A DNA stretch of 64,000 nt from an uncultured Kiloniellales bacterium (GTDB lineage: Bacteria > Actinomycetota > Acidimicrobiia > Spongiisociales > UBA5794). Each line of letters opens with the position of its first letter. Within the stretch, counting starts at the first letter, position 1. Position numbers and translations under genes: made by a program. The stretch lies in contig CAXMOP010000115.1 in assembly GCA_964195155.1 (NCBI GenBank), forward strand, positions 4,986 through 68,985, given 5' to 3'. Shown in pieces: positions 2,304-41,555 of this stretch. Below the pieces are notes generated by a model. It saw only the letters and a list, made by a program, of their open reading frames with translations, ran no database searches and was not told the DNA's origin.

Positions 2304-2886
2304 GTGCTCATCCGACGGGCGGTTCTCGACGGGGTCGTAGCGGGCGAGATCGATCTCGCCTTTCGACGCTGGGATCGCCCGTCGGTCAAGGTCGGAACCC
2401 GACAGCGCACGGCGGTGGGGATCATCGAGATCACGGCCATGGAGGTGATCGACCTCGCCAACATCACCGACGAGGAGGCCGTCCGAGCCGGCGCGGCATC
2501 GGCGGCCGAGATCCGGGCATGGCTCGGAGCAAGAACCGGCTCGGTCTATCGCATCAGCCTCATATACGCGGGAACCGACCCCAGGGTGGCGTTGCGCAAG
2601 GCCGAGATCACTACCGATGAGGACCAGTCGAAGTTGGCCGCTCAATTGGACCGCTTCGATGGAACCGGGCGCCGCGGGCCTTGGACGGTTGCGGTGCTGC
2701 GGGCCATCGGAGATGCGCCCGGCACCCCGGCGGCGGGATCTCGCCTTGCGGTTCGGCCGCGAGAAGCGCCTCTTCAAAACCGACGTGCGGAAACTGAAGG
2801 AACTCGGCCTCACCGAGAGCCTGCGACCAGGGTATCGGCTGTCGCCGCGGGGCCGGTCGTTCCTGAAACGGCTCGACGAAGACTAG
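2304..2886 (+). CDS. Hypothetical protein with an apparent +1/-1 frameshift near 2724-2738 (frame 0 from 2304, frame 1 to 2886)
   Basis: The frame-0 product looks protein-like up to GDAPGTPAAG. Frame 1 continues as RDLALRFGREKRLFKTDVRKLKELGLTESLRPGYRLSPRGRSFLKRLDED. The switch falls in the run caccccggcggcggg. Downstream, frame 0 reads antisense through gtrA and is not coding. Confidence 0.4.
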
Positions 2887-3035
2887 AGGATGCGCGGATA
2901 GGTGATCGGCCTTCTCGACAGAGGTGCTTCTTTGCCTTCCGCTCTTGCTGCTTCGCAGCGGGCCGCTCGGGCCCCGGCTCAGCGGATACTCTTTCTCAGA
3001 TCGTGACCGGAATCGCGCCCTACCCGCTGAGCCTC

Positions 3036-3503
3036 TTAGTCGGCCGCTACCGGCTCAGCCGCTTCCTCCCCGGCGAGGGCACGGCCGAACACGATGTCAC
3101 GGTACGAGGCGAACTTGGGGAGCAGGATCATCACCGAGGCGAACAGATAGACCCCGTTGGCGGCAACGGCAGACAGCGGGCCGAAGAACGACTCGGCAAG
3201 CCACATGATGCCGGCAGTCACCGCCCAGGCAGCCCCATTGACCAGGTAGAACTGGAAGGTCTCGCGCCCGGACAGTTTCCCGTCGCGCAGCTCAAAGGTC
3301 CAGGTGCGGTTGAGCAGGTAGGAGAGGAACGTCGTCACGGCGAAGGCAACCGACACCGAAGCCACCGACGACCAGTCGAATCCGATCAGGAAGAGGTTGA
3401 ACAGCGCAAACGACACCACGGTATTGACCACGCCGACCACGCCGACCTTGACGAACTGGTCGAGCGACTCACGATTGAGGAAGCTCTCGACATACTGCTT
3501 CAC
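3036..3503 (-). CDS. GtrA-family small membrane protein (polysaccharide/lipid-sugar flippase-like)
   Basis: GTG at 3503 preceded by GAGAGGA. It is a 155-aa protein with 4 TM helices and matches the GtrA/DUF2304 profile (VKVGVVGVVNTVVSFALFNLF...). The GTGA overlap with the upstream gene's stop (3500-3503) indicates translational coupling. Confidence 0.8.
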   Translation of the reverse strand: MKQYVESFLNRESLDQFVKVGVVGVVNTVVSFALFNLFLIGFDWSSVASVSVAFAVTTFLSYLLNRTWTFELRDGKLSGRETFQFYLVNGAAWAVTAGIMWLAESFFGPLSAVAANGVYLFASVMILLPKFASYRDIVFGRALAGEEAAEPVAAD

Positions 3504-8348: not shown

Positions 8349-11131
8349 CCGAATCTCCGCCCCGCCCACGCAGAGACAACCAGCACAGACAGCCAAACGG
8401 CGGCGAGGATCGCCTGGGTGCGGCGCTCACCGATCGGAGCGAAGGCGGCCGTCCCGCTGTCCGCCGAAACCTCGTTCCACACGCCCGATTGAGCCCAAGG
8501 CGCAGGTCCCCATCGGCCGTGTGCGTTGTCGCGAACGGTGAGTCGGCTCCCCGTCTCCGCGGTCCCCTCGTAGTCGGCGCCGACACTCGGCCATGCGATT
8601 CCGGCCGACGTCATGGAACGGAAGGCTCCCGCTGCCTCAATTTCATACGTCTCGTTCTCCAACCCTGCGCTGAGCGAGACGATGTCGAGTTGGCCGGTCA
8701 GCCGCTCGGACCAGGCCGCGGCGTAGGGCTGGTCCTGCATGATCACGATCCATCGGATGCCGAAGGAGGCAAGCGCCTCGCCCGCCCGGGAGGTCTCCCC
8801 AGCGATGACCGACAACAGCTCGGCGTGCAGCGCGTCGTCTGCGGGCCGCGGTGCGGCGAGATCGGCCTCCCACAACTCGACCGTGGGCGCCGAGACGACC
8901 CGGTAGGCCGCGCCCTCGATGATGCGCTCGTCGCCCGGCAGCTCCCCGGGTGCACCGAGAAGCAACACGCGAGACTCGGCGGCGTCGCCGGGTCGAGCCT
9001 CGGTGAAGGCAAGCGCCTCGCGATACCGGTCTGGAGGGAGCCCCGCCCTCCCTCCCAGCAATACGGTGGACGAGGCCGCCAGCAGCACCAGGGCGCCGGC
9101 AACGGCGACGCCGCCGACGATCCGCCGCCAGCCGCTGGTCTCGGAGCGCGTGATGGCCTCGAGCGCCGCACCGGTGATCGCCGCCAGACCGAGCGTGACG
9201 AGGGTCAATCCGGCGTATCCGATCTCGCTGCCACCGCCGAGACCGGCACTCCTCGCCAGGAGGGCTCCGCCGGCAGCGAGCACGCCGCCCCAACCGGCAA
9301 CCAGGGCAAGGCGCCGCGGCGCCGAGACGACGACGGCCACGGCTGCGATCATCGTCGCCGCGACCACCACGATCGAGGTCGACCAGAATGCGGCACCCTG
9401 GGTGAGGAATACGTTCAGATCGACGGCGCCGGCCCACGGAAACAGCATCGGAATCGCCAGGACGACTCCCGCGCCGCTGATCGCCACGGCCCGCCACGCC
9501 CCGCCGTCGTTCACGTTGATCAAAGCCCATACCAGCAATGCCACAACCGGCACGAGTAGCAGCGAAGGAGAAGCCAGGGCGACGATGCCGGTGCTGGCGC
9601 CGATAGCGGCGACCCGACCTGCCCGGCCAAGGGCGGTCTTCGGCCACCGGGCCAGCGCCAGTCGCAGCACCAACGGAACCACACCAAGCCCGATCATCGT
9701 CCCGATGGCGGTCTGCGAGGCCAGACCCTGGTACGCCGACCCGGTCACGTACACCAGACCGGCAAGGGTGCCGGGCACCGCCTTGATCCCCCATCCACGC
9801 AGCAATCGAACGGTCCCCCATACCCCGAGGAGGGCCGATCCGGCGATGGCTACATACTCGGCGAGCCGGCCGGAGTCGAGGGTCAGCCCGCGTAGAACGC
9901 TGACGACGGCAACCAGTGGCGGAAGCACCTCTTCGCTGCCGAATCCGGCGGGGTTCCATCCACCGGCATACGCGCCGAGGCCCGCCAGCCAGGAGCCCGG
10001 AAACGCCAGACTCTCGCCAACGGCCGGAAGCCCGAACGACCAGAGCGAGCGGACGGCGATCAGGACCAGGAACACCGCGGCGACACCCACGATCAACGAC
10101 GGTCGCCGCAACTCCTGGCCGATCGCCTCAACCCCGATCGCGTCTTCACCGGGAAGCCTGGCCCTGATCCGGTCCGACAGTTGAGACGAGGTGCGTTTGA
10201 GTGATACCGACCCGCTGACTTGATAGCGGAAGAGCTCTTCATCGCCGACGGCACGCGCATGTCTGGCGCGTCGGCGCTCCCCGAGCGTGTTCGGCAGACG
10301 CACCAGATTCCAGGCCCAGGCGCGAAGCCAGTCGAAGAACGTCCATCGGCCCAGGAACAGGGAAAGCGTCGAATCGGCAAAGCCGGAAAGGAAGGCAACC
10401 GGCACCGTCCACAGCAGGGTCAACGGCCCGTAGACCTTGCCCATCGCCCGGAACCTGCCGGCGCGCTCGCGCCACGGCTCCCGCTCGGTTCCCCCGTCCA
10501 CAACGAGAACCTCAGACGACGGGACCACGATGACCCTTGCGCCGCGGAGCCGTGCCCGCTGGCAGAAGTCCGTCGCCGCGGCGAGGGACGGCAGGAGTCG
10601 GTCCGGCCCTCCGAGGCCGCGAGCGAGGTCTCGTCGCACGAACAGCGACTCACCGCCGACGGCTGCGACATCGCGCACGACGTCGTACTGGCCCTGGTCG
10701 AGTTCGTCGTCGTCGAGCCCGGTGTACGGGGAATCAAAGACGTCGGTGGCGAAGCCGACCGACAGCAGGTGACCCGGATCGTCGAGGTCGAGGATCTTGG
10801 ATCCGGCGACCGCAGCGTCAAGGGAGGTCGCGGTGTCGGCGAGGGCGGCAAGGGCATCGGTGCGGGGTCTGGCGCCGCTGCGCACAAACCAGAGGTGGCT
10901 CGCGGTGCTGCCATCGCGGGAAAACATGGCGGCGATGGCCGGAAACCATTCGACGTCCTCCGCACCGGCGAGACGACGCGCATCGGTGTCACCGCCGATA
11001 ATGACGATCTCGTCCGACTCGTACACTTGGCCACGAACCGCATCGAGGGTTTCGGCAAGGCCGGGCGTGCTGCCAACGAGAATGGCGGTGACGACCGAGG
11101 CGGGGTTCGCTCCCGCGGAAGAGGCTGACAT
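8345..11131 (-). CDS. Glycosyltransferase family 2 domain fused to a large (about 650-aa) polytopic membrane domain
   Basis: The N-terminus SVVTAILVGSTPGLAETLDAVRGQV with ESDEIVII is GT2-like, and the remainder is highly hydrophobic. The start at 11131 is tentative: it overlaps the cofD start divergently (catg) and has no Shine-Dalgarno sequence. Confidence 0.7.
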   Translation of the reverse strand: MSASSAGANPASVVTAILVGSTPGLAETLDAVRGQVYESDEIVIIGGDTDARRLAGAEDVEWFPAIAAMFSRDGSTASHLWFVRSGARPRTDALAALADTATSLDAAVAGSKILDLDDPGHLLSVGFATDVFDSPYTGLDDDELDQGQYDVVRDVAAVGGESLFVRRDLARGLGGPDRLLPSLAAATDFCQRARLRGARVIVVPSSEVLVVDGGTEREPWRERAGRFRAMGKVYGPLTLLWTVPVAFLSGFADSTLSLFLGRWTFFDWLRAWAWNLVRLPNTLGERRRARHARAVGDEELFRYQVSGSVSLKRTSSQLSDRIRARLPGEDAIGVEAIGQELRRPSLIVGVAAVFLVLIAVRSLWSFGLPAVGESLAFPGSWLAGLGAYAGGWNPAGFGSEEVLPPLVAVVSVLRGLTLDSGRLAEYVAIAGSALLGVWGTVRLLRGWGIKAVPGTLAGLVYVTGSAYQGLASQTAIGTMIGLGVVPLVLRLALARWPKTALGRAGRVAAIGASTGIVALASPSLLLVPVVALLVWALINVNDGGAWRAVAISGAGVVLAIPMLFPWAGAVDLNVFLTQGAAFWSTSIVVVAATMIAAVAVVVSAPRRLALVAGWGGVLAAGGALLARSAGLGGGSEIGYAGLTLVTLGLAAITGAALEAITRSETSGWRRIVGGVAVAGALVLLAASSTVLLGGRAGLPPDRYREALAFTEARPGDAAESRVLLLGAPGELPGDERIIEGAAYRVVSAPTVELWEADLAAPRPADDALHAELLSVIAGETSRAGEALASFGIRWIVIMQDQPYAAAWSERLTGQLDIVSLSAGLENETYEIEAAGAFRSMTSAGIAWPSVGADYEGTAETGSRLTVRDNAHGRWGPAPWAQSGVWNEVSADSGTAAFAPIGERRTQAILAAVWLSVLVVSAWAGRRFG

Positions 11132-12101
11132 GAACGACGCTATTCAAGAGACGAAGCCGCGCTATTCCAATCATCCGCGCCTTGCCGTCCTATGCGGCGG
11201 CGTCGGCGGGGCACGGGCGGCCAGGGCTCTGGCGAGTGTCCTCCCCGCCCCGCATCTCACCGTAATCGGCAACGTCGGGGACGACGAAGTGCGCTACGGC
11301 GTCCACGTGTCGGCAGACATGGACACGATCGTGTACACCCTGGCCGGGCTTCAGGGCCCGCACGGGTGGGGCATCGCCGGGGACACGTTTGCCGTGATGG
11401 ACCAATTGTCGGTGCTCGGTGAGGACACCACCTTCCGGCTCGGCGACCAGGATCTGGCCACCTGTCTGCATCGGACGGTTCGGCTGGGGGCCGGTGATTC
11501 CCTGTCGACGACGATCGCCGAGGGTGCTGCCGCGTTTGGCGTCACGGTGCTGGTCCTCCCGGCCACCGATGATCGGCTTCGCACCGAGATCATCACCAGC
11601 GACGGGGAGCGCCTGGCCTTCCAGGACTATTTCGTCATCCGTGGTCACCGCGATGAGGTCGCCGGGCTCGACTTCGTCGGCAGCGAGGCGGCAGTGCCTG
11701 CCCCGGGTGTGGTGGAGGCGATCGAGGAAGCCGATGTCGTCGTCATCGCACCGTCGAACCCGCCACTCTCGATCTGGCCGATTCTTGCGGTTGGCGACAT
11801 CGCGGCGGCGGTGGATCGGCACGACCGGGTGGTGGCGATCAGCCCGCTGTTCGGGGGTGCGCCCATCAAGGGACCGGCCGATCGTGTCCTCGCCTCGCTT
11901 GGCTTTGCGCCGGGAAATGAGGGAGTTGCGGGTGCCTATGCCGGTCTGCTCAGCGATCTCGTCATCGACGTCGGTGACGCCGCCGACATCGAGCTGCTGG
12001 CGGCGCCCCAACTGGCCGTGCACGCACTTGACACGCGAATGGGTGGGCCCAATGCGGGTAAGCGCTTCGCCGCCTCCCTGCTGGAGACGCTCGGATGGTG
12101 A
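11130..12101 (+). CDS. cofD: 2-phospho-L-lactate transferase CofD (FbiA), F420 biosynthesis
   Basis: LAVLCGGVGGAR, the DTIVYTLAG region and GWGIAGDTF are CofD/LPPG:FO transferase hallmarks. Confidence 0.85.
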   Translation: MNDAIQETKPRYSNHPRLAVLCGGVGGARAARALASVLPAPHLTVIGNVGDDEVRYGVHVSADMDTIVYTLAGLQGPHGWGIAGDTFAVMDQLSVLGEDTTFRLGDQDLATCLHRTVRLGAGDSLSTTIAEGAAAFGVTVLVLPATDDRLRTEIITSDGERLAFQDYFVIRGHRDEVAGLDFVGSEAAVPAPGVVEAIEEADVVVIAPSNPPLSIWPILAVGDIAAAVDRHDRVVAISPLFGGAPIKGPADRVLASLGFAPGNEGVAGAYAGLLSDLVIDVGDAADIELLAAPQLAVHALDTRMGGPNAGKRFAASLLETLGW

Positions 12102-13771: not shown

Positions 13772-13965
13772 CTGCGACCGCGTCGGATCTCGACGTGTAT
13801 GTTCGGGGGTTGTTTCCACGTTTGAGCAGGGTTTCCGCGGACCGTCGAGGGTACCCGCAGTGCAGATCTGGACCGCCGTTATTCCCTGACGTGACTCTTC
13901 CATGTTTCTTTTGTTTCTGTTGTTTCTGGCCGGTTTGTGTCATACCTGGTTGATAGGTTGTGGCC

Positions 13966-14639
13966 ATGGAAGACATCATCTTCGAGGGCCGTTCGCTCGA
14001 CGAGATAGAACAGATTCTTGCTCGTTGCGAGTCGGCGGTGGGGCGTCTGCGCTCGATACAGATGCGGGCACTGCGCCACGTCGACCGTGTCCAAGGCCCA
14101 CTGGCCGATGGCTGCCGCTCCATGGGGAATGGGTGACGGGCCGCCTCGACGTTTCACCGGACACCGCCAAGAGTCTGGTCTCCACCGCCCAACGCCTCGG
14201 TGAGCTGCCGGCAGTCGAAGAAGGCGCCGCCGGCGGTGACCTGACCTACGACCGGGCCGTGGCGGTGGCGAGGCTCGCCGAAGGCGGAGACGGCACCACC
14301 GCGTTGGAAGAGTCCGCCGGCCTCGACGTAGCCGGCATCCACCGTCAAGTAGCGCAGCGGCGTCGTCTCAGCCGACACCAACAAGCATTCGACGACACGT
14401 ACGCCTGGGTGCGACGGAATGGTGACGAGATCCTCCATCTTCGGCTCGTGCCGGAGCTGGACCCCGCAGCGAACGAGTCGGCCGGCTACTTCCACGTGGA
14501 GGATGCGGACTCCTGGCATGCTGCGTGGACGGGGGGCGATGTGCATCTCACCGCCATCGAAGACCATCCGTCGGGGATGCGCGAGTTCTCGTTCTCCGAT
14601 CCAAACGGCAACCTGATCCGGGTCGGACACAACCTCTGA
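13966..14639 (+). pseudogene. Degenerate DUF222 (REP13E12-type HNH endonuclease) N-terminal remnant with a frameshift near 14125, fused in frame to a VOC/glyoxalase-like C-terminal half-domain
   Basis: Frame 1 reads MEDIIFEGRSLDEIEQILARCESAVGRLRSIQMRALRHVDRVQG then stops. Frame 0 continues EWVTGRLDVSPDTAKSLVSTAQRLGELP..., the DUF222 signature W...RL.LS...A. The last 60 aa (YFHVEDADSWHAAW...FSFSDPNGNLIRV) are a glyoxalase-type beta-alpha-beta-beta-beta half. No HNH domain is present. Confidence 0.5.
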
Positions 14640-14662
14640 GCCGGGCTCGACGAGTGATTGCG

Positions 14663-15589
14663 CTACCGGCTGGCCAGGAACTCACGAACGTCGTCCGATA
14701 GCTGGCGACTCTGGGGCGAGTCGAAGGTATAGAAGCCGTGCCGCGCCCCCTCGTACACCTTGTACTCGACATCGAAGGCCCGTTGCCGGAATCGTTCGGC
14801 ACAAATCCGAGACGATCGTGCCAATCGATCCTTGGATCCCGCGACGATGAAGGTAGATGGGAGCGAATCAAACGTCAGGTCCATCGGCGTCACGGAAAGA
14901 TGCGGCGCTACTTCTGCTGCAAGAGCTGCCTGACCGGCGTAACTCCGGAGCATCAGAGACGCGGGGCCGAACCCGTCTTCGATCCAGGTGAGACGGTCAA
15001 GCACCCCCTGAATCGATACAACACTCTGAATCGCCGGCACCTCTCCCGTCATCTCAACCCCGAGGGGCTGCGCCAGGCCGGGATTGGAGATCATGATCGC
15101 CGCCATCATCGCCAGGTTGCCACCAGCCGAATCACCCATCAGATGCACTGACTCGTACTCGGGATGGTGACGACGTATCCACGCCAACGCGGCGAGGGTC
15201 GAACGCAGGATGTGCGGATGCGGATACTCCGGAGCCAACGGGTACTCGACATTGAAGACCGGATGTCCTGCCGCGGCGACATCGAGTAATCGATACGTGG
15301 AGATGTCAGAGCTGCCGCTGATCCAACCGCCGCCGTGAAAATAGACCACTGCGGTCATCGGCGACGACTTCGGCGCGGCGGGTATGAAATCGAGATACTC
15401 GGCCGCGTTGGGCCCATATTGGTGGCGACCGACCGTTTCCGGCGGCCTGCCCTTCCGAAAACGAAATGCCGCTGCCACCGATCGACTCATGAACCTTGAC
15501 ACGCCAACGGAGAGCCGGTCACGAAACGGAGCCCTCACGAGGGAGACCCCGTCGGTCGGCTCGCTCGGTTCCATCCGCGGCACACTCAC
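14663..15589 (-). CDS. Alpha/beta-hydrolase esterase/lipase (HSL/Aes family)
   Basis: The HGGGW oxyanion motif and the GDSAGG nucleophile elbow are present. The start is GTG at 15589, or alternatively ATG at 15490. Confidence 0.75.
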   Translation of the reverse strand: MSVPRMEPSEPTDGVSLVRAPFRDRLSVGVSRFMSRSVAAAFRFRKGRPPETVGRHQYGPNAAEYLDFIPAAPKSSPMTAVVYFHGGGWISGSSDISTYRLLDVAAAGHPVFNVEYPLAPEYPHPHILRSTLAALAWIRRHHPEYESVHLMGDSAGGNLAMMAAIMISNPGLAQPLGVEMTGEVPAIQSVVSIQGVLDRLTWIEDGFGPASLMLRSYAGQAALAAEVAPHLSVTPMDLTFDSLPSTFIVAGSKDRLARSSRICAERFRQRAFDVEYKVYEGARHGFYTFDSPQSRQLSDDVREFLASR

Positions 15590-15636
15590 TACTCACCCTC
15601 TGGGTGCGTTTTTGCGACCCTGGATCTACCCGTCCG

Positions 15637-32427: not shown

Positions 32428-32542
32428 GTCAACCTCCTCCTCGGCGACGCGCAAGGGTAGGCGGCGGGCGCGGTCGGGCCGCCCGGGCATCGTGCGCGTA
32501 TGGTTTGTGGAACATGAGCCGCGAGCAATCCGAGGTGTTGTG

Positions 32543-33208
32543 ATGACGGCAAAGGGTGGCAACGGTCGGCTTCCCCTCTCCTACCTGACCCTGCGACGGA
32601 CTTTGGGAATCCTGGGCATGGCGCTTCCGGTGATTTTGGTGATCGGCGGCCTCATCTTCACCTCCAACAGCGAGATCGAGAACACCATCAGCGACTATTA
32701 CGACACCATCATGGTGGGCGTCTTTGTCGGCGTGCTGTTTGCCATTGCCACGTTCATGTTCTCCTACCTCGGCTACGAGATGCCGAACAGGGGACGATTC
32801 GAGGCTACCGACAACATCGCCGGCAACCTGGCGGCCCTCTTCGCCGTCCTGGTGGCGCTGTTCCCGACCACCCATTCCGTGCAGTGGGTGCGAGGCGTGC
32901 ACCTGGCATCGGCGTTGCTGTTCTTCATGACCCTGGCGTACTTCTCGATCCACTTGTTCACCAAGACCACGCCGGGCGAGACCGCGCAGGGGAGAAAGGC
33001 CGATCGGAACCGGATCTACCGAGTCTGCGGCTGGGCCATCATCCTGTTCATCGCCCTGATCGCCGTCTACTTCCTGTTCTTCCAGGACACGGGCATCGCC
33101 GATCTCAAGCCCGTGCTCGTGCTCGAGTCACTTGCGCTGTGGGCATTTGGCATCTCCTGGCTGGTCAAGGGCGATACGTTGCTCCAGGACTCACCGCCCG
33201 CCCGGTGA
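32543..33208 (+). CDS. Hypothetical membrane protein (5-6 TM helices); first gene of the low-GC island
   Basis: ATG at 32543 with a GAGGTG Shine-Dalgarno sequence. GC content is clearly lower than in the flanking DNA. Confidence 0.55.
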
Positions 33209-33393
33209 GCGCTTCCGGTCGAGCCTCGAGCCCGAGGCGATCGCCGAACGGCGGATGGCGAGTTGAGGCCCGAGGGCAGCGCGGTATTGCCGGTTCTCGG
33301 ACGCCGCGACGTGGGTTGGTGAGCCGGCGCGTGCGTCGTTATGTGCGGTCTGCGCAGACGGTGGAAACCGACGATCTTGCCAGGGGTCAGGGA

Positions 33394-33415
33394 GCGCATA
33401 TTGCCGGATATGCGC
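33394..33415. promoter_or_regulatory. Island palindromic motif copy a: GCGCATATTGCCGGATATGCGC
   Basis: An 8-bp perfect inverted repeat around a GCCGG core. It lies upstream of the MBL hydrolase gene. A related copy is at 33454-33473. Confidence 0.6.
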
Positions 33416-33540
33416 TAGCTGATCTTGACGAACCGCTACGGGGAGCGCGAACAGAATGCCGGTTATGTGCGGGTGTCTGGGGGCCTTCTCCGGGCCCCGT
33501 CAGAACGAACTAGGGTGCGTCGACCCGAAGGAGGCCTTCT

Positions 33541-34677
33541 TTGTCGAACTTTGTCCTAGCGCATCTGGGTGGTACTACAGCGCTTACTACTGAGCCGGTC
33601 GTCGGGTCATCAGATATTGACCCGAGCGTGGCATTTCTGCCCGGGACCGAGGAGCTCGCCGAAGGTGAGATCCGAGTGTCAATCTTGGGTTCCGGGTTGC
33701 CGTGGGTGACCAAGTCGCAGGCATCCGGATCGGTTCTCATGGAGGTGGGCAATCCCGAAAAGGATGTGCTCGTCTTCGATATGGGAACAGGATCGCTGGC
33801 GAACTTCAGCGGTCTTCAAGTTCCTGTCACAAGCCTGAAGAACGTGTTCTTGAGCCATCTACATGCAGACCACATCTCCGACTACGTCACATTCATGGGC
33901 AGCTACGTCAAGGCTGGACGTCTAGACCCTGTCGAGGTGTGGGGTGGAGCGTCCGACGATCCCACATTGGGCCTTGCGACTTTCGTGGACCACATTCAGC
34001 GAGCCCTCGCGTGGGACCAGGCCTCAATCGAGGGATATGTACCTACTACCGGAGGACATGCCACCGCTCACGAAGTTCCATACGACAGGACTGAGGTGAT
34101 CTACGAGCGCAATGGCGTAACCATCACTTCGTTCCCAGTCATCCACGTCCTCAACGGTGCGGTGGGTTTCCGCGTCGATTACGGCGGGCAGTCCGTCGTG
34201 TTCTCTGGCGACACCCTCCCAACGATGACGCTTGTTGAGGCCTCTCAGAATTGTGATCTCCTGATCCACGAGGCAGCCCTTCCCGCCGAGCTGTTTGCCG
34301 AGTTGTACAGCTTCCCGATCGAGCAGGCGCGGATGGTCATCAATGAAGGCCACACCCCCGCCAACGCTGCTGGAATGGTGTTCGACATGGTGACGCCGCG
34401 AATGGCAGCCATGTGGCACACGGCCGTTGTAGACAAGTACGTCGATCCTTTCTTTGAGTCTCTCCGCACGACGTACTCCGGGCCGGCAACGCTGTGCCAG
34501 GACCTAACCGTGTTCAACGTCACGGCCGACGCCGTCACCGCCCGCCAAGCGACCATCGATTGGACCCAACAGGCGGTCGTAGGCGAATCCGATACCGCCC
34601 GGTCCTACGCAGAGCGGCGTCCCAGCCCGACATGGTTCGCCGACGCATATATCGACTGGCAGTCAAAACTCGGCTAA
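33541..34677 (+). CDS. MBL-fold metallo-hydrolase
   Basis: The HLHADHISD motif (HxHxDH) is present. TTG start at 33541, 7 nt after AAGGAGG. Confidence 0.75.
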   Translation: MSNFVLAHLGGTTALTTEPVVGSSDIDPSVAFLPGTEELAEGEIRVSILGSGLPWVTKSQASGSVLMEVGNPEKDVLVFDMGTGSLANFSGLQVPVTSLKNVFLSHLHADHISDYVTFMGSYVKAGRLDPVEVWGGASDDPTLGLATFVDHIQRALAWDQASIEGYVPTTGGHATAHEVPYDRTEVIYERNGVTITSFPVIHVLNGAVGFRVDYGGQSVVFSGDTLPTMTLVEASQNCDLLIHEAALPAELFAELYSFPIEQARMVINEGHTPANAAGMVFDMVTPRMAAMWHTAVVDKYVDPFFESLRTTYSGPATLCQDLTVFNVTADAVTARQATIDWTQQAVVGESDTARSYAERRPSPTWFADAYIDWQSKLG

Positions 34678-34680
34678 TCA

Positions 34681-34752
34681 GCCGCACATAACGGCACATA
34701 GTGGGCGGTCGCCTCCAGCTAGCGCATATCGGCACATATGCGCATATGTGTC
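34681..34752. promoter_or_regulatory. Island palindromic motif copies c1 and c2 (CCGCACATAACGGCACATAGTGGGCGG and GCGCATATCGGCACATATGCGCATATGTG)
   Basis: Directly visible in the convergent spacer after the MBL gene. Confidence 0.6.
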
Positions 34753-34855
34753 GATTGGGCGGGGGATTGGGTGCGTGTCTATGAAGCGCGAAGCGGCGCT
34801 GTGGACGTTTGCCGAGTCCGACGATTGAGTCGGGTCTTCTGTGGGTGAGTGGCGG

Positions 34856-35170
34856 TCAGCCCACCTCGACGTATTCCGAAATTGTCTTCATGAACTCGTC
34901 GGGGTCATCTGGGGTGACCGTGGCCCGTAGACGGCCGCCAGCATCTATCGCAATCCCCGTGGTCTTGTGTCGGCGTGCAGTGTCCCAGTTATACCAGTTC
35001 GACCATCCGCCCGGACCGAGTCCTATGACCCTCCACCGCCCGCCGAATCCCATCTCAAACACCTCGACTGATCGAATCTCGCCGTACGGAACCCGCTTCT
35101 CGCCCAATAGCCCGTAGCGAGCGATCGTGATACCCGTGTCATCGGCTCGCACCGTGTTGTCCTCATACAT
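34856..35170 (-). CDS. Bacterial PH-domain (bPH_2-like) small protein
   Basis: 104 aa. ATG at 35170. Confidence 0.5.
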   Translation of the reverse strand: MYEDNTVRADDTGITIARYGLLGEKRVPYGEIRSVEVFEMGFGGRWRVIGLGPGGWSNWYNWDTARRHKTTGIAIDAGGRLRATVTPDDPDEFMKTISEYVEVG

Positions 35171-35305
35171 CAGCCGCAGAGTATTGACACACTCGTCGTA
35201 TCAACACCGCCGCTGTCGCCGGTCGAATGAGCCACATCTCAATCGGGCGCGGCGGACTCACGAGGCCCAGACGCCCTCCGTCAGACAGTTCGGATTGAGA
35301 AGGCC

Positions 35306-35375
35306 CCCCCATAACCGGCAATATGGGCGGTTTCGCCCGGCGGGTCGGGTAGCGCATATGTGCCGATATGGGCGG
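35306..35375. promoter_or_regulatory. Island palindromic motif copies d1 (CCCCCATAACCGGCAATATGGGCGG) and d2 (GCGCATATGTGCCGATATGGGCGG)
   Basis: Directly visible. d2 ends at the ridA stop codon. Confidence 0.6.
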
Positions 35376-35834
35376 CTATTGGATCTCGACGATCGCCTCG
35401 ATCTCTACCGGTATGTTCATTGGAAGCGATCCAAGTCCGACCGCTGAACGTGCATGCCGTCCAGCCTCGCCGAATACGTCCGCCAGTAGATCAGAGCACC
35501 CGTTGATGACAGCCGGGTGATCAGTGAAATCGGTCGTGCAATTCACCATCCCCAGCACCTTGACTACCCTTACGACCTCGTCAAGCGAACCGAGATTCTT
35601 TCGAAGCGTCGCAAGCAAGCCAAGGCATGTGACTCGTGCCGCCTCGCTAGCTTCATCGGTATCGAGGTCCTCTCCAACCTTGCCGGTCATCCACGACCCG
35701 TCGGCGCGCATCGGGCCATGACCGGACGTGTAGGCGAGGTTCCCCGTTCGCACAAACGTGACATAGGACGCAATCGGATCGGGAGGTGAGGGCAACACCA
35801 AACCGAGTTCCTTGAGTCGAGCCTCCGCCGACAT
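35376..35834 (-). CDS. RidA/YjgF-family reactive-intermediate deaminase
   Basis: 152 aa with typical RidA fold motifs. ATG at 35834. Confidence 0.8.
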   Translation of the reverse strand: MSAEARLKELGLVLPSPPDPIASYVTFVRTGNLAYTSGHGPMRADGSWMTGKVGEDLDTDEASEAARVTCLGLLATLRKNLGSLDEVVRVVKVLGMVNCTTDFTDHPAVINGCSDLLADVFGEAGRHARSAVGLGSLPMNIPVEIEAIVEIQ

Positions 35835-35920
35835 CAGACGCTCCTGCCTCTACGAATCCCCCGAGGGTACAGGCCCACGTCTCCCGTCAACATTCTCGGC
35901 CGCACCAAGCCACTCAGAGA

Positions 35921-35944
35921 GCGCATATGTGCCGATATGGGCGG
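35921..35944. promoter_or_regulatory. Island palindromic motif copy e: GCGCATATGTGCCGATATGGGCGG
   Basis: Identical to d2, and located upstream of ridA. Confidence 0.6.
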
Positions 35945-35954
35945 GTGTTTGGTG

Positions 35955-37124
35955 TCAGCCGCAGGTGGCCTCGGAGCTGCTACTGACGGTATCGATCCAG
36001 TGGACGGATTGTCCGGTGGCGATGTCGCCTGTGGAGATCGTCCCTGATGCGGTGTATGTCGAGGGGTCGACGTTGAAGGTGTGGCGGTAGTCCGTTTCGT
36101 TGCCTGTTGTAGTGATGATCCCGGAGAACGTGTCGGTGGGGGCGCGGGATGGGATTTGGCGGTCATCGAGTCGGATGCTGGCGTGTAGGGGGCCGCCCCA
36201 GTCTCCCCACGTCAGGATCACTTGACACTCGCCCGAGCTTGGATCCCTGGACAGTTGGAGTGTTAGTTCAGCTTCGAGGGACGGCTTGTCGTTCAAACTG
36301 GCCTGTACGTCGATGAAGTTGCCTGCCAGCGGTACCAGTCGCGGGTTCCCGTAGAGGAAATCGACGTCGGCAACACCTGGGGTATTGGAGAACCGGAGGA
36401 ACATGGTGCGAGCGAATGGTCTGAAGATGCCCACGGTGTCAGGACCAGGCAGGTCGTCCTTCTGTGCCCAGTCACCGGCGATGATCCTGTCACCAGGATC
36501 TCCGTAGTAGAAGGTGCTATCGGCGATCCCCTGGGTATTCGAGTTCCGGAGGAACACCTGTCCGGTTGATTCGCGGTGGAGACCGACGGTGTCGATGTCG
36601 TCGTCGTCGAAGTCGCCTACGAACGGCTTGTCGAGAGGATTCCCGTAGTAGAACGAGTAGCTGGCCGCGCCCAGACCCTGTTCCCCACTGCCGAGACTGT
36701 CGAATATGAAGACTTGACCCTGCGACGGCCGGTACAGCGACACCGTATCGCACCCGTCCCCGTCGAAATCTCCTGTGATCGGAACGTCACCACGGCTGCC
36801 GAGGTAGAACCTGACATCGCCCTCTCCGATCGCGATGTGATTCCGCAGGTACACGTATCCATCCGTCGGTCGGAACATGCCTGGCGTATCCCAGCCATCG
36901 CAGTCCCAATCACCGACGATCGGGATATCTCCGGGTACGCCGAAGAAGAATCTATAGCTCGAAATCGTCCCGGATTGCTCGTGCTGCTGACGCAGGTACC
37001 ACAGGCCCGATGTGGTATCAACCACACCGACGGTGTCCTCGGGCGTCTCGGCCAAAACCGGAGCCGGTAAGGCGAGCCAACCGAGCACGACAATCAACAC
37101 AAGAGCCGTCACTGTCACCCTCAC
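35955..37124 (-). CDS. Secreted FG-GAP / beta-propeller repeat protein
   Basis: The signal peptide is VRVTVTALVLIVVLGWLALPAPVLA. At least five repeats of F(Y)YG.PGD.P..GD[WF]D.DG.DT.G.FRP follow. The start is GTG at 37124, or TTG at 37160. Confidence 0.7.
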   Translation of the reverse strand: MRVTVTALVLIVVLGWLALPAPVLAETPEDTVGVVDTTSGLWYLRQQHEQSGTISSYRFFFGVPGDIPIVGDWDCDGWDTPGMFRPTDGYVYLRNHIAIGEGDVRFYLGSRGDVPITGDFDGDGCDTVSLYRPSQGQVFIFDSLGSGEQGLGAASYSFYYGNPLDKPFVGDFDDDDIDTVGLHRESTGQVFLRNSNTQGIADSTFYYGDPGDRIIAGDWAQKDDLPGPDTVGIFRPFARTMFLRFSNTPGVADVDFLYGNPRLVPLAGNFIDVQASLNDKPSLEAELTLQLSRDPSSGECQVILTWGDWGGPLHASIRLDDRQIPSRAPTDTFSGIITTTGNETDYRHTFNVDPSTYTASGTISTGDIATGQSVHWIDTVSSSSEATCG

Positions 37125-37388
37125 CGACACCCCCGGACCCTCCACAATTTCGATCCTCAACGATCACGGATCATACGACTCAGACTATGAGAGGAAACGG
37201 ACCATGGTTCCCCATGACGTCCGGCTCAGCTAGCTCCTAGACGCCGAAGGAAGAGCGATCGCCGAATGGAATGGTGCTGCGGACGACCAGACGCTCGACT
37301 CTCTGCTCGAACAGTCCCTCGGGTGATCAACCCGGCCGAACGCCACCAAACCAATGACCTTCGGCGGCACGTCAAACCTCCGACCACA

Positions 37389-37414
37389 CCCGCCCATAAC
37401 CGGCAATATGCGCC
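37389..37414. promoter_or_regulatory. Island palindromic motif copy f: CCGCCCATAACCGGCAATATGCGCC (reverse complement of copy a type)
   Basis: Directly visible in the divergent spacer between the FG-GAP gene and the HNH gene. Confidence 0.6.
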
Positions 37415-37585
37415 CCCTACGTCCCGGTCTCCAGAGGCAGGACCGGGTACAGCACGAACACCGATCACCCGGTCTGAGCGACATCGCCGACATCCACGAG
37501 TGCTCTGGAACGGCACTTCGGAGTGCGGTCAGTTTCCTTGCATTTCTTCTGGAATCTGTCACCCGCACCGTGTAGGATCGAACAT

Positions 37586-38821
37586 ATGTTCGATAGAGAA
37601 TTCACCTCTGTCCCCGATGGGCTCGACGACATGGAACCAAGCGTGGAGTTGGCAACCGCGCTCAATGACATCGACGTCGATCTGGTGTCGCCGCATGACC
37701 GGATCATCGTCATCCGCGCCTACGCCCGAATGGAGTCCTACTACCAGGCCCGCAAGTATCGCGCCATGGCCTCGGTCGCCGACGCCTTGGAAGAAGACGA
37801 CATGCAGCATGGCCTCGACACCGCTGCCGCCGAGATCCAAGCCGCCCTGTGTCTGACCCGCCGCGCTACCGAAACCGAACTCGGGTTCGCGTTGGATCTG
37901 TGGCATCGCCTTCCGCAGGTCTGGTCTGCGTTGGCGGCGGGGATGATCGACTACCGGAGGGCCCGGGTCATCTCCCTCGGGACGGTCCACCTCGACACCG
38001 GTGCCGCATGGGAAGTCGTCGAACGCATCTTGGAGGACGCCGGCCGGCTCACCTCCGGCGAGCTGCGGAGCCGTCTGCACCGGATGGCGATCGAAGCCGA
38101 CCCGGAGGACGCGCGGCTCCGCTACGAGGACGCCGTCAAGGAGCGGCGAGTGGTTCTCGAACCCGCCGATGACGGGACCGCCAACCTGCTCGGCCTCCAG
38201 CTGGCTCCCCATCGCGCCGCAGCTGCTTCCCGTCATGTGAACCATCTCGCCCGATCGCTGAGGACGAGGGACGAGACCCGCACCATGGATCAACTCCGCG
38301 CCGACGTCCTCATCGACCTGCTCTTGGGCAAGGCACACAGCGGCAAGAAGGCGGGAGCGGTGAATTTGCGGGTCGATCTGGAAACCCTCTCAGGCCTCGC
38401 CGAAGACGCAGGTGAGTTGAACGGCTACGGCCCGGTGATCGCCGACATCGCCCGCCAGATCGCCGCTGAAGCCGAAGATGCCGAATGGCGCTACGCCATC
38501 ACCGACCCGCACACCGGCCAATTGATCACCGACGGGACCACCCGCCGTCGCCCCACCGCCGCGTTGCGCCGCACCGTGGAGGCAAGAGATCAGACCTGTG
38601 TGTTCCCCGGCTGTCGCGTGCCCGCGGTCGACTGCGACTTCGACCACAGCACCCGATGGGCCGACGGCGGCGAAACCACAGAAGACAACGGCGCCCCCCT
38701 CTGTCGCCACAACCACATCACCAAGGACCAACTCGGTTGGAGCTACCGGCGGCTCCGTGACGGCCGCTACCGATGGCGCAGCCGACTCGGCCACACCTAT
38801 TACAGCGCCAGATCCCCATAG
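37586..38821 (+). CDS. DUF222 (REP13E12-family) HNH endonuclease
   Basis: The N-terminal DUF222 region is followed by a C-terminal HNH motif, CVFPGCRVPAVDCDFDHSTRWADGGETTEDNGAPLCRHNH. Confidence 0.8.
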   Translation: MFDREFTSVPDGLDDMEPSVELATALNDIDVDLVSPHDRIIVIRAYARMESYYQARKYRAMASVADALEEDDMQHGLDTAAAEIQAALCLTRRATETELGFALDLWHRLPQVWSALAAGMIDYRRARVISLGTVHLDTGAAWEVVERILEDAGRLTSGELRSRLHRMAIEADPEDARLRYEDAVKERRVVLEPADDGTANLLGLQLAPHRAAAASRHVNHLARSLRTRDETRTMDQLRADVLIDLLLGKAHSGKKAGAVNLRVDLETLSGLAEDAGELNGYGPVIADIARQIAAEAEDAEWRYAITDPHTGQLITDGTTRRRPTAALRRTVEARDQTCVFPGCRVPAVDCDFDHSTRWADGGETTEDNGAPLCRHNHITKDQLGWSYRRLRDGRYRWRSRLGHTYYSARSP

Positions 38822-38838
38822 TCGATCGCGCCGGCGCG

Positions 38839-39912
38839 CTACCCGACCGTGTACAGCTCGCGGTCCGACCGGTTCAACCGCTCCACGCCGTCGTCGGTGA
38901 CCGTCACGATGTCTTCGATCCGCATCCCCCAGTGACCGGGTTGGTAGATGCCCGGCTCGATGGAAAAAGCCATGCCGGAGACCAGCTCAGTGGTGTCTCC
39001 TTTGACGAGATAGGGTCGCTCGTGGGTGTCGAGGCCGATACCGTGCCCGGTGCGGTGGATGAAGAGCTCGCCGTATCCGCCGTCCTCGATCACGGTCCGA
39101 GCTGCGACATCAATGGACCCGGCGGTTACCCCCGGCTTCACCGCATCCACGGCCGATCGTTGCGCGGCGCCGAGCACCTCGTACGCCTCGGCGAACCCCC
39201 CCGGGGGGTCTCCCACCACGAACATGCGAGTGGTGTCGGATCCGTATCCATCGAGCCAGCCGCCGAAGTCAACGACAACGGCGTCGCCACGCTCGATCAT
39301 CCGGCCGGTCGGCTCGTGGTGGGGCGATGCGCCGTTTGGCCCGGAGGCGACGATGGCAAAGCCGCTCCTCTGATGGCCCGAGTCGAGCGTCATCTCGTCG
39401 ATCAGCCGCGACAGCTCGCGTTCGCTGCGCCCTGAGAACCTGGTCGCCCCCAGCCGGGCAACCACCGCGTCGGTGGCTGCACCCGCGGCGCGGAGAGACG
39501 CGATCTCGCCCTCGTCCTTCACCATGCGCAGCTCGGACATCAGCGGTTCGGCCGGTTCGAACCGCGCACCCGGCAGCCGGGTCTGCATGCCGATCAAGAA
39601 GGTTGCCCAGGTCTGGTTGCCAACGGCGACGGTGGAAGCGTTGCCGATCAGGCCAGCGAGGATCGCGATTGGATCCTCGGTCTCCGACCAGGCCCGCTTC
39701 TCCACACCGGACTCGACGCGCACCTCCTCGAGCACCGGTACCAACAGGACTGGATCACCCTCGGCGGGCAGCACCAGTGCGGTGATGCGCTCGTTCTCCA
39801 TTGCCTGGTACCCGATCAGATACGGCAGATCGGATCCAACGGTGACGACGAGGGCATCGACGCCGCGGCGAGCCATCTCCAGTCGCGCCGAAGCGATCCG
39901 GCGCTCGTTCAC
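38839..39912 (-). CDS. M24-family Xaa-Pro aminopeptidase/dipeptidase
   Basis: A pita-bread fold with HRTGHGIGLDTHE metal ligands. GTG start at 39912. Confidence 0.8.
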   Translation of the reverse strand: MNERRIASARLEMARRGVDALVVTVGSDLPYLIGYQAMENERITALVLPAEGDPVLLVPVLEEVRVESGVEKRAWSETEDPIAILAGLIGNASTVAVGNQTWATFLIGMQTRLPGARFEPAEPLMSELRMVKDEGEIASLRAAGAATDAVVARLGATRFSGRSERELSRLIDEMTLDSGHQRSGFAIVASGPNGASPHHEPTGRMIERGDAVVVDFGGWLDGYGSDTTRMFVVGDPPGGFAEAYEVLGAAQRSAVDAVKPGVTAGSIDVAARTVIEDGGYGELFIHRTGHGIGLDTHERPYLVKGDTTELVSGMAFSIEPGIYQPGHWGMRIEDIVTVTDDGVERLNRSDRELYTVG

Positions 39913-41555
39913 GTGGCCTGGGCGAGCGAGTCGCGGGCGTGATAGGAGGAACGGACCAGCGGACCGGACTCAACATGGCTGATCCCGAGAGACTCGCCGT
40001 GGCTGCGATATCTGGCGAACTCATCGGGATGGACGTAGCGATGGATCGGGCGGTGCCGCGGCGTTGGCCGGAGGTACTGGCCGATCGTGACCAGATCGAC
40101 GCCGACCGCCCGGAGGTCGGCGAGCGTCCCGAGCACCTCTTCCTCGGTCTCCCCCATCCCGACGATCAGGCCCGACTTCACCGTGCCCGCCGGGTTGAGC
40201 CACTTGGCTCTCGCCAGCAGGGTCAACGACCGTGCGTAGTTGGCGGCGGTGCGGATCTCCCGTTGCAGACGCAGCACGGTCTCGGTGTTGTGATTGAGGA
40301 CCTCGGGCTTCTCGCCGACCATGGACTCGAGAGCGTCCCGATCGCCCTTGAAGTCGGGGATCAGCACCTCGACGTCGCAGCCGGGAACGAGGTCGCGGAT
40401 CCTTCGGACCGTCTCAGCAAAGATCCCGGCGCCACCGTCGGGAAGGTCGTCGCGGTTGACCGAGGTCAATACCGCGTGACGCAATCCCATCTGCTGTATG
40501 GCCTCGGCGGCCCGCAGCGGCTCATCGACGTCGACCTCGCCGGGCTTGCCCGTGTTGACGTCGCAGAAGGAACAGGCGCGGGTGCAGGTATCACCGAGCA
40601 GCATCAAGGTCGCAGTGCCGGCCTCCCAGCACTCATAGATGTTGGGGCAACCCGCTTCCTCGCACACGGTGTTGAGCTCGAGTCCCCGCATCAGCTGCTT
40701 CAGCTCCCCGTATCCGTCAGAGCCAAGGTTTGCCCTGACCTTCATCCATTCGGGACGAGCCGGCTCGCCCGGGAGGAGGCCACCGATCAGGATCGGGGTC
40801 TCCCCACGGCCGGCCGCGGAGAACGCACCGGATGCGACCATCGCATCGACGTCGTACCGGCCGGATCGCTCGCTTGGCCGGAAGGCGCCGAGCTGTATCT
40901 CCGGCTCCACGGATCCAAAGACTGCCGCTGCGTGCGGAACCAGGGCATCGATGACGGACTCCATCGGGAGATGCTCACCGATCAGCTGGGCGATCGAGGT
41001 CACCGGCCGGTCGGCGATCCCGCATGGGACGATGTTGGAGAAGTATGCAAGGTCCGGGTCCACGTTGAGGGCAAAGCCGTGGGTTGAAACTCCCCGGGCA
41101 ACCCGAACCCCGATGGCGGCCACCTTGCCCCGCCCGGTCCACACGCCGGTCTGGCCGGCCTCGGCCCAGGCTTCGATGCCGAGATCGGCGAGGGCGGCGA
41201 TGAGCATCGCCTCGAGGCGGCGAACGTGGCCGACCATGTCCCAGCCATTTGCCAGCTTCGGGATAGCAACGATCGGGTAGCCGACGAGCTGGCCGGGGCC
41301 GTGGTACGTGATGTCGCCGCCGCGATCGACGTGGTGCAACCTGGCACCAATCGCGTCGAGGTCGGCCTCGGCGATGGTGAGATTGGATCCGTCACCGTTT
41401 CGGCCGACCGTGTAGGTATGCGGGTGCTCCAGCAGCAGCAGGTAGTCGTCCGCGGACCGACCCTCGGTTCGTCCCTCCCAGAACGCACGCTGCAGGTCCC
41501 ATGCCTCGTCGTACTCGACGCGGCCGAGCCACCGCACACGGAGGCGGTGGCTCAT
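39909..41555 (-). CDS. In-frame fusion of octanoyltransferase LipB (N-terminal, about 238 aa) and lipoyl synthase LipA (C-terminal, about 310 aa)
   Basis: ATG at 41555 forms an ATGA overlap with the E2 gene stop. The LipB catalytic region includes TYHGPGQLVGYPI and the catalytic C of ...VPCGI. LipA then follows with RPEWMKV, the [4Fe-4S] triad CEEAGCPNIYEC and the radical-SAM triad CTRACSFC. There is no stop codon between the two halves. Confidence 0.8.
   Translation of the reverse strand: MSHRLRVRWLGRVEYDEAWDLQRAFWEGRTEGRSADDYLLLLEHPHTYTVGRNGDGSNLTIAEADLDAIGARLHHVDRGGDITYHGPGQLVGYPIVAIPKLANGWDMVGHVRRLEAMLIAALADLGIEAWAEAGQTGVWTGRGKVAAIGVRVARGVSTHGFALNVDPDLAYFSNIVPCGIADRPVTSIAQLIGEHLPMESVIDALVPHAAAVFGSVEPEIQLGAFRPSERSGRYDVDAMVASGAFSAAGRGETPILIGGLLPGEPARPEWMKVRANLGSDGYGELKQLMRGLELNTVCEEAGCPNIYECWEAGTATLMLLGDTCTRACSFCDVNTGKPGEVDVDEPLRAAEAIQQMGLRHAVLTSVNRDDLPDGGAGIFAETVRRIRDLVPGCDVEVLIPDFKGDRDALESMVGEKPEVLNHNTETVLRLQREIRTAANYARSLTLLARAKWLNPAGTVKSGLIVGMGETEEEVLGTLADLRAVGVDLVTIGQYLRPTPRHRPIHRYVHPDEFARYRSHGESLGISHVESGPLVRSSYHARDSLAQAT

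Follow-up and report, generated by a model that had tools for sequence, protein, structure and literature searches.

How did six unrelated accessory genes come to lie between two operons in the chromosome of an uncultured actinobacterium? The question is raised by a 64-kb stretch of contig CAXMOP010000115.1 (assembly GCA_964195155.1; all 64,000 nucleotides (nt) are called the window here), whose genes have close homologues that NCBI labels Acidimicrobiia. On the minus strand, the gene order E3-E2-(LipB-LipA fusion)-M24 peptidase leads into an island, behind which the order continues as tkt-unknown-Cob adenosyltransferase-M17 peptidase. A first-pass annotation, made from the sequence alone, had described positions 32500-38838 as an island of low guanine-plus-cytosine (GC) content and had taken it for horizontally acquired DNA. 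We found that the block is an insertion with respect to the relatives' loci, that it is fixed in its species, and that it is built as a three-part mosaic. The evidence supports horizontal acquisition, and the 6.35-kb block is probably a lineage-specific island that does not move by itself and was built in a permissive gap from three components of different history. Its parts are the following (GC3, GC content at third codon positions; REP, repetitive extragenic palindrome; aa, amino acids).

32491..38838, from the tkt start to the M24 peptidase stop: whole inserted block, 6.35 kb, six accessory genes
32543..33208, plus strand: membrane protein gene, 221 aa, divergent from tkt; GC3 0.86, host-like
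33380..37530, no strand: foreign-like core, ~4.15 kb, bracketed by inverted REP copies and set apart by GC, GC3 and codon usage
33541..34677, plus strand: metallo-beta-lactamase (MBL)-fold hydrolase gene, 378 aa, GntH-like by NCBIfam; GC3 0.69-0.70
34856..35170, minus strand: small PH-like protein gene, 104 aa, weak bacterial PH-domain similarity; GC3 0.70
35376..35834, minus strand: RidA/YjgF-family gene, 152 aa; GC3 0.65, the window minimum
35955..37160, minus strand: repeat protein gene, 401 aa from a TTG start (391 aa in public contigs), product probably secreted
37586..38821, plus strand: DUF222/HNH endonuclease gene, 411 aa, or 432 aa from an upstream GTG at 37523

A mosaic insertion between the M24 peptidase gene and tkt

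A scan with the tkt protein over one genome per GTDB species yielded 79 loci of relatives (numbers with L are our handles for collected loci and contigs). At the four nearest ones, E2, lipBA and M24 are followed by tkt across a gap of 23-83 nt, and tblastn with the window proteins found none of the six island genes there. The tkt proteins at these loci are 77-78% (L007, L008) and 66-67% (L009, L010) identical to that of the window. The membrane gene in particular is absent at the tkt loci of relatives. This synteny comparison had been proposed by the first-pass annotation as a test of horizontal acquisition, and its outcome supports that claim.

We reached closer relatives through a search with the M24 protein. 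In L229 (M24 87% and lipBA 91% identical), the M24 stop codon is followed by an unrelated open reading frame (ORF) that belongs to no family (L229:2413-3006). In L230 and L231 (M24 79% and lipBA 90% identical), a glyoxalase-family gene takes that place (L230:10220-10609). None of the three carries island genes, or the REP-like repeat described below, after M24. The same gene set at the same place in relatives had been named as the sign of an ancestral low-GC locus; what we found in L229 and L230 is different genes. Because the content after M24 varies among near relatives, we conclude that the gap between the two operons, tight in distant clades and variable in the near clade, is a hot spot of gene turnover. 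One further locus looked like a candidate island, L011, where 8.7 kb separate lipBA from a tkt that is 60% identical. We rejected it as a rearranged distant locus; the stretch holds ordinary genes (acetyl-CoA synthetase, VIT1, redoxin) and shows no GC dip.

Within the species, the junction is constant. Proteins identical to those of the window are encoded on contig CAXMNS010000009.1 of the metagenome-assembled genome GCA_964194755.1 and in several ENA, JGI and Logan metagenome assemblies. In each of the 12 contigs whose M24 protein is identical, the DUF222/HNH gene adjoins M24 (the 10 listed come from 10 sample accessions), and four contigs of 19-20 kb (L001, L002, L211 and L212) span the whole island. 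Same-species contigs match the window at 99.8-100% identity. Since independent contigs span the island at this identity, an assembly artefact is excluded and the island is shown to be fixed in the species.

The window as a whole has a GC content of 65.2%, and its 1-kb windows average 65.3% with a standard deviation of 2.2%. The eight 1-kb windows lowest in GC (58.2-60.8%) all lie within 33,001-37,500. GC comes to 61.4% over 32,500-38,838 and to 59.6% over 33,500-37,750; the remainder of the window has 65.7%. A contiguous trough thus exists, as the first-pass annotation had seen, and its extent is smaller than claimed: the dip covers only ~33.4-37.5 kb, and the membrane and HNH genes on either side are host-like. 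Coding GC had been put at about 57% against 70% elsewhere; we measured 58.4-60.0% in the MBL, PH-like, RidA and repeat-protein genes against 65.6±1.8% in 38 other window genes. The five spacers are indeed long, with 332, 178, 205, 120 and 362 nt, the last becoming 425 nt if the HNH gene starts at 37,586; this agrees with the 120-425 nt first reported. They had also been called AT-rich, which they are not: their GC of 60.7-66.0% equals or exceeds that of the neighbouring coding DNA.

Codon usage divides the block in the same way. The four core genes have a GC3 of 0.65-0.73, compared with 0.807±0.036 in the 38 other window genes, which corresponds to z-scores of -3.2 (MBL), -2.9 (PH-like), -4.3 (RidA) and -2.1 (repeat protein); the HNH and membrane genes score -0.5 and +1.5. 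We further set a codon-usage model of 23 background window genes against one of 121 long genes from metagenome contigs that bear the repeat. The log-likelihood ratio per codon favours the repeat-contig model for MBL (+0.071), PH-like (+0.091), RidA (+0.089) and repeat protein (+0.064). Background genes reach -0.030±0.020 in a leave-one-out calculation, with a maximum of +0.012, and the membrane (-0.060) and HNH (-0.039) genes fall with the background. The GC and codon-usage check that had been suggested for the whole island therefore holds for four genes and fails for two. The compositionally foreign part is limited to the four central genes at ~33.4-37.5 kb, and the island is a three-part mosaic consisting of this foreign-like core, a host-like membrane gene and a host-like DUF222/HNH gene.

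The last of these components has features of its own. The DUF222/HNH gene runs towards M24, their stop codons 17 nt apart, and its GC (65.2%) and GC3 (0.79) are host-like. Its product matches DUF222 (Pfam PF02720) at 75.4 bits against a cut-off of 24.4. As for the HNH label, the Pfam match of 19.2 bits stays just below the cut-off of 21.4, and the residues of the CxxC...DH...N...CxHNH pattern are present, reading CVFPGC...DH...DN...CRHNH and intact. Among 1827 homologues, the best match other than itself is 69% identical, and the 90%-identity cluster of the protein contains this locus alone. The nearest homologues (67-69%) are solo genes in ~66% GC DNA, placed between EamA and amidohydrolase genes or between OmdA and DDAH-like genes; no repeat lies next to L206, L209 or L210, the nearest among them. 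Nucleotide homology between the window gene and these homologues covers the ORF only. No HNH homologue was found on 374 kb of repeat-bearing contigs. Solo homologues in unrelated contexts, together with homology confined to the ORF, indicate that the HNH gene probably came in by itself, as a selfish insertion of the REP13E12/DUF222 type, and did not drive the island. A REP13E12-type HNH gene had first been read as one sign of horizontally acquired DNA; a solo selfish gene of host-like composition is no evidence of mobilisation of the block, and where a DUF222/HNH gene is present it should not be assumed to drive the island. Among phage and plasmid records, where the family is nearly missing, the protein finds matches of 25-32% identity only; with the repeat also absent from viral contigs, we rejected a phage or plasmid origin of the block.

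A palindromic repeat in the core spacers

Every spacer of the core contains a REP-like palindrome, which the first-pass annotation had missed. The unit is a 22-mer, GCGCATAT-N6-ATATG(C/G)GC, with 8-bp arms and a 6-nt loop, and it occurs as type A (GCGCATATGTGCCGATATGGGC) and type B (GCGCATATTGCCGG(T/A)TATGCGC). Nine copies span 33394-37413, at least one in each of the five core spacers and three in the convergent spacer between the MBL and PH-like genes. Elsewhere in the window (60 kb), and likewise in the tkt loci of relatives, a profile search brought up no significant copy. The two copies at the ends of the series (33389-33415 and 37392-37418) lie in inverted orientation, are 89% complementary and bracket exactly the four atypical genes. 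The copies and the longer repeats that contain them are as follows.

33394..33415, plus strand: REP-like palindrome type B, GCGCATATTGCCGGATATGCGC, perfect 8-bp arms; nhmmer E=3.5e-14
33449..33470, plus strand: degenerate REP-like copy type B
34684..34705, minus strand: REP-like copy, 7 nt past the MBL stop codon; same position in L226-L228
34722..34743, minus strand: REP-like palindrome type A, 1 mismatch to GCGCATATGTGCCGATATGGGC
34740..34761, plus strand: degenerate REP-like copy type A, with a 4-nt overlap with the copy at 34722..34743
35307..35373: inverted REP doublet (minus-strand type B copy, 35307-35328; plus-strand type A copy, 35352-35373)
35921..35942, plus strand: REP-like palindrome type A, 12 nt beyond the repeat-protein stop; E=9e-12
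37392..37530, minus strand: ~140-nt repeat, opening with a type B REP copy at 37392-37413
L202:757-894, L158:2327-2464, L177:453-589, L199:262-399 and L087:1560-1672: homologues of the ~140-nt repeat

The doublet, whose copies are 45 nt apart from start to start, abuts the RidA stop codon. The ~140-nt repeat is 77-84% identical over 115-140 nt to its five homologues, none of which adjoins an HNH gene. It shows no covariation, and five same-species contigs break at it (37,407-37,439). It looks like a miniature inverted-repeat transposable element or a long REP doublet (REPIN).

We searched public collections with a degenerate pattern that matches five of the nine window copies. The pattern found no match in viral contigs. 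In metagenome contigs it found at least 120 stretches, 374 kb in total (L086-L205), often with the repeat at a contig end. Among the matches listed, repeat-bearing contigs have a GC content of 61.1±1.8% and their long genes a GC3 of 0.73±0.06; 169 of 190 exact copies lie outside predicted ORFs, on contigs that are 73% coding. Copies occur in convergent, divergent and tandem spacers alike. The consensus extends beyond the palindrome to CAG(G/C)TA-palindrome-GGG(T/C) or -TA(C/G)CTG, and 89 of 138 type A copies carry GTAG (…GGTAGCGC…), with CTAG in another 44. Inverted minus/plus doublets exactly 45 nt apart recur in at least 10 of the metagenome contigs listed.

The genes on these contigs are accessory genes of an ordinary chromosomal kind, which together with the spacer counts speaks against an integron-like or operator role of the repeat; they encode cyclase-AAA-TPR paralogues, Zn-dependent dehydrogenases, a sulfatase, DUF998 proteins, and IS30 and IS110 transposases. 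The first group stands out: 17 paralogous large proteins that combine adenylate/guanylate cyclase, AAA/NB-ARC and TPR regions, some with an N-terminal zinc ribbon, are over-represented there (L091, L099, L104, L107, L122, L127, L162 and others). IS110- and IS30-family transposase genes were seen on several contigs (L190:946-2175, L174:5158-6246, L135, L159; L115:1007-2179, L181). Elements of the IS110/IS1111 group target REPs in Proteobacteria. A tblastn search of the collected loci and the window found no RAYT (Y1 transposase, a single-copy gene), the query being an approximate RAYT-like consensus.

Other roles for the repeat were considered and set aside. As structured RNAs or terminators the copies do not stand out, their folding energies being no better than those of shuffled sequences (z -1 to -2); covariation in the extended stem and flanks is weak, and matches to terminator-like and promoter-like patterns are at or below shuffle expectation. 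No Rfam family reaches its gathering score anywhere in the window, and nothing is found within the island at E<=1. A transcription-factor operator is unlikely, since the copies number at least 190 and some of them lie in convergent spacers or form doublets. From its sequence features we class the repeat as REP/REPIN-like, a modestly new element in that it is such a family in Acidimicrobiia-like DNA. It is a marker of flexible DNA and a point at which metagenome assemblies break, and it forms the borders of conserved single-gene modules.

The origin of the core and the rival explanations

One such module is the MBL gene. Its nearest homologues (L226-L228, 57.5-58.3% GC) share 84-85.5% nucleotide identity across the gene. 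They have the same repeat upstream of MBL, and a second copy past its stop codon where the window has one. The two repeats bound the homology with the window, which begins at the upstream one and goes no further than the one past the stop codon. The neighbours differ, being an MBL paralogue, an α/β-hydrolase and others. Homologues at 76-80% identity have different surroundings again, where repeat copies are few or absent. Elsewhere, the GC3 of the gene follows the local genome: it is 0.80 in L224 (64% GC), 0.73 in L221 (63%) and 0.67-0.68 in L226-L228 and L232 (57-60%). The window copy, with 0.69-0.70 in a background of 0.81, matches the low-GC lineages. Because GC3 tracks the local genome in the other copies, the window copy appears not to have been ameliorated, which points to transfer from low-GC lineages into the lineage of the window.

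From these observations we infer a donor lineage, a course of events and a recombination mechanism as follows. The gap between the operons E3-E2-lipBA-M24 and tkt-unknown-Cob adenosyltransferase-M17 would host gene turnover in this Acidimicrobiia clade. The core, four independent and probably monocistronic accessory genes with REP/REPIN-like repeats in their spacers, would have been imported from a related Acidimicrobiia lineage of lower GC (~58-61%) that carries the same gene-plus-repeat modules, and would not yet have been ameliorated. Homologous or illegitimate recombination is the most likely route, with the repeats as likely breakpoints. The HNH gene would have entered independently, next to the M24 stop codon, and the membrane gene would have arrived separately from the core.

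Several observations weigh against this account. The mechanism is inferred in a block with no integrase, transposase, tRNA or target-site duplication: the window contains no tRNA or tmRNA, no integrase or transposase is among the Pfam families recorded for its called genes, and the search for an integrase or direct repeats at the borders, suggested in the first-pass annotation, returned only chance-level direct matches inside coding DNA. As a pointer to the donor, the best MBL match has only ~85% nucleotide identity. The tight M24-tkt junction is known only from fairly distant relatives (tkt 66-78% identical), and the contigs of L229 and L230 end before the tkt side. The repeat count for this genome rests on 64 kb, and a few long repeat-bearing contigs (L147, L184 and L099) have a host-like GC3 of 0.80-0.81. 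Owing to these host-like contigs, the repeat is not an exclusive tag of the donor and may be native to this genome.

This last point leads to the alternative that the block is native flexible-genome DNA, which an internal rearrangement, or exchange between members of the species, would have brought to the M24-tkt gap. We regard this as unlikely, with some arguments on its side. Repeat-bearing contigs with the composition of the host exist (L147, 65.2% GC and GC3 0.81; L184, 64.6% and 0.80); same-species contigs from five assemblies break at the 37,407-37,439 repeat, implying more copies in those samples; the membrane and HNH genes are host-like; and the window holds another mildly atypical gene, 14663-15589, with a GC3 of 0.70. 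Against it, the other 60 kb of the window lack the repeat despite further non-coding stretches, no other window gene has a codon usage as far out as the four core genes, and the MBL gene, whose GC3 adapts locally elsewhere, here equals the low-GC lineages that hold its closest homologues. An ancestral locus, with six genes between M24 and tkt in a common ancestor and independent deletion in the relatives, is very improbable. Deletions do occur at the site, as the variable gap in L229 and L230 indicates, but at least two precise ones would be needed to restore the 23-83 nt junction (in L007/L008 and L009/L010), plus the replacements in L229 and L230, and neither the un-ameliorated GC3 and codon usage of the core genes nor the occurrence of the closest MBL homologues in other contexts would be explained. 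The chance that the contig is a chimera of two organisms joined at the repeats is negligible: the DNA does come from a metagenome-assembled genome, and assemblies do break at the repeats, but independent assemblies, from different samples and assemblers, span both junctions, and the four that span the whole island do so at 99.8-100% identity.

A single mobile element, in the form of an integron-like cassette array with attC-like repeats and the DUF222/HNH protein as recombinase or nuclease, is scarcely credible in spite of a suggestive layout. Repeats bound each core gene, three of the four core genes are co-oriented with a repeat just past each stop codon, the HNH gene lies divergent at one end where an integron integrase would be, and the MBL-plus-repeats module recurs in other contexts. 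Promoter-poor single genes with an imperfect palindrome between them and a divergent nuclease-type gene at the end are what integron cassette arrays, or clusters of attC sites without an integrase, also show. Yet we found no tyrosine recombinase and no IntI, the repeats lack the R''/R' (RYYYAAC/GTTRRRY) cores of attC, gene orientation is mixed, and copies of the repeat are scattered among ordinary chromosomal genes, in spacers of every orientation (convergent, divergent or tandem). Neither the 374 kb of repeat-bearing contigs nor the nearest HNH homologues bring HNH gene and repeat together, and the HNH and membrane genes differ from the core in composition. We therefore rejected the integron/attC reading. 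A broader proposal is that single genes bounded by repeats, in the order repeat, promoter, gene, repeat, are the unit of gene exchange in these Acidimicrobiia; repeats and some transposase or nuclease may then capture modules and shuffle them into gaps between operons. If true, the modules would form a cassette system that lacks an integron integrase. The MBL module, kept from repeat to repeat at 84-85.5% nucleotide identity in at least three different neighbourhoods, fits this proposal; the same evidence also fits plain homologous recombination at dispersed repeats, and we hold the proposal to be improbable. The import of a core from a lower-GC lineage into a permissive gap, with separate arrivals of the membrane and HNH genes, remains the account we favour.

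Gene products, neighbouring genes and known systems

The gene order given in the first-pass annotation stands, as do the labels MBL (Lactamase_B_2), RidA, DUF222 and M24, all of which pass Pfam cut-offs. The membrane protein has no Pfam or NCBIfam family above cut-off. The MBL protein matches Lactamase_B as well as Lactamase_B_2, and exceeds the cut-off of the NCBIfam equivalog NF041257 (GntH) with 356.7 bits against 333. Its gene is flanked by those of the membrane and PH-like proteins and not by a gnt biosynthetic cluster, and the automated name 'GntH/guanitoxin' should not be taken to mean toxin biosynthesis. It has 2032 homologues in many unrelated contexts. Those at 70-88% identity are mostly on contigs of 1.3-4 kb, and the nearest (84-88%) on short contigs flanked by REP copies. 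The window gene starts with TTG. Relative to L227 and L228, ~90 extra nt (33452-33540), which include a degenerate REP copy, precede this start; they are placed between a conserved upstream segment containing TTGAC and the start codon.

The bacterial PH label of the small neighbour reflects a weak similarity, since its 19.1 bits to Pfam bPH_5 are under the gathering cut-off of 22.5. RidA is recognised by YjgF_endoribonc (PF14588, 62.5 bits, cut-off 35) and Ribonuc_L-PSP (PF01042, 50.6 bits, cut-off 27.3). The repeat protein had been called a secreted FG-GAP beta-propeller, a fold for which we found no support: no FG-GAP/VCBS or other profile matches it in Pfam (to E=10), NCBIfam or the PDB sequences, and only the repeat motif is visible. 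As read from the sequence, an N-terminal hydrophobic, signal-like segment precedes four repeats of ~48 aa and a degenerate fifth of the GD(W/F)D.D..DT / GDxDGDGxDT type, the unit being F/YxxG..PGD.P..GD(W/F)DGDG.DT.G.(F/Y)R. A single-sequence AlphaFold2 model (predicted local distance difference test score 36.9) was too poor for a fold search. Homologues at 50-53% identity are present in L105, L187 and L221. In the lineage of L221-L223 (63% GC), homologues of the MBL (77%) and repeat (50%) proteins lie ~6 kb apart, at positions 2490-3932 and 10001-11137, in a loosely packed region where genes stand singly between long spacers and REP copies are nearly absent. PADLOC found no anti-phage defence match for the six island proteins.

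Outside the island, the window has a second, milder GC dip at 13772-15636 (61.2% in a 1-kb window). Gene 14663-15589, on the minus strand, encodes a 308-aa α/β-hydrolase-like protein with HGGGW and GDSAGG motifs; it is the sole window gene outside the island with a GC3 as low as 0.70, and no REP copy lies there. Next to M24, the LipB-LipA fusion (39909-41555, minus strand) is a single ORF of 548 aa that joins an LplA/LipB-type catalytic domain to LIAS_N and radical-SAM domains, and it is kept full-length in L007-L010 and L230.

Three known systems invite comparison. The repeat resembles the REPs and REPINs of Proteobacteria, the group in which REPs have mostly been described, in being a 22-nt imperfect palindrome that is mostly extragenic and, across the metagenome contigs, present in high copy number. 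Its inverted doublets with a fixed 45-nt spacing resemble REPINs, which are REP doublets (Bertels & Rainey 2011, PMC3116915; PMC3337134). GTAG (GGTAGCGC...), which stands at the start of about two thirds of the type A copies, recalls the head typical of the REPs listed by Nunvar et al. 2010 (PMC2817692), such as the Stenotrophomonas Smal2 REP, with CTAG in most of the others. The repeat differs in being found in Acidimicrobiia-like metagenome contigs, in that no RAYT was found in the collected loci and the window, in the weak covariation of its hairpin and, within the 64-kb window, in its confinement to one island.

The HNH gene recalls the REP13E12 family of Mycobacterium tuberculosis, a DUF222-HNH repeat family (Gordon et al. 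1999, cited in PMC10589994). Both pair DUF222 with a C-terminal HNH/zinc finger, here as intact residues with a Pfam score just under the cut-off, and occur as solo genes in varied chromosomal contexts; unlike REP13E12, the gene is seen here in one copy within 64 kb and has no conserved flanking DNA past its ORF.

The block itself compares best with genomic islets in integration hot spots. Unlike these, it has no integrase, tRNA, direct repeats or transposase, and its small size (6.35 kb), its mosaic make-up and its fixation in the species set it apart further. Like them, it is absent at the syntenic site in relatives, gives way to other cargo in near relatives, has atypical GC3 and codon usage (in the four core genes) and carries unrelated accessory genes. 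We therefore see in it an ordinary small genomic islet and not a new kind of system. It leaves current concepts unchanged, and it shows how the compact, operon-dense genome of an uncultured marine/sediment actinobacterium gains accessory genes, namely through a permissive gap between operons.

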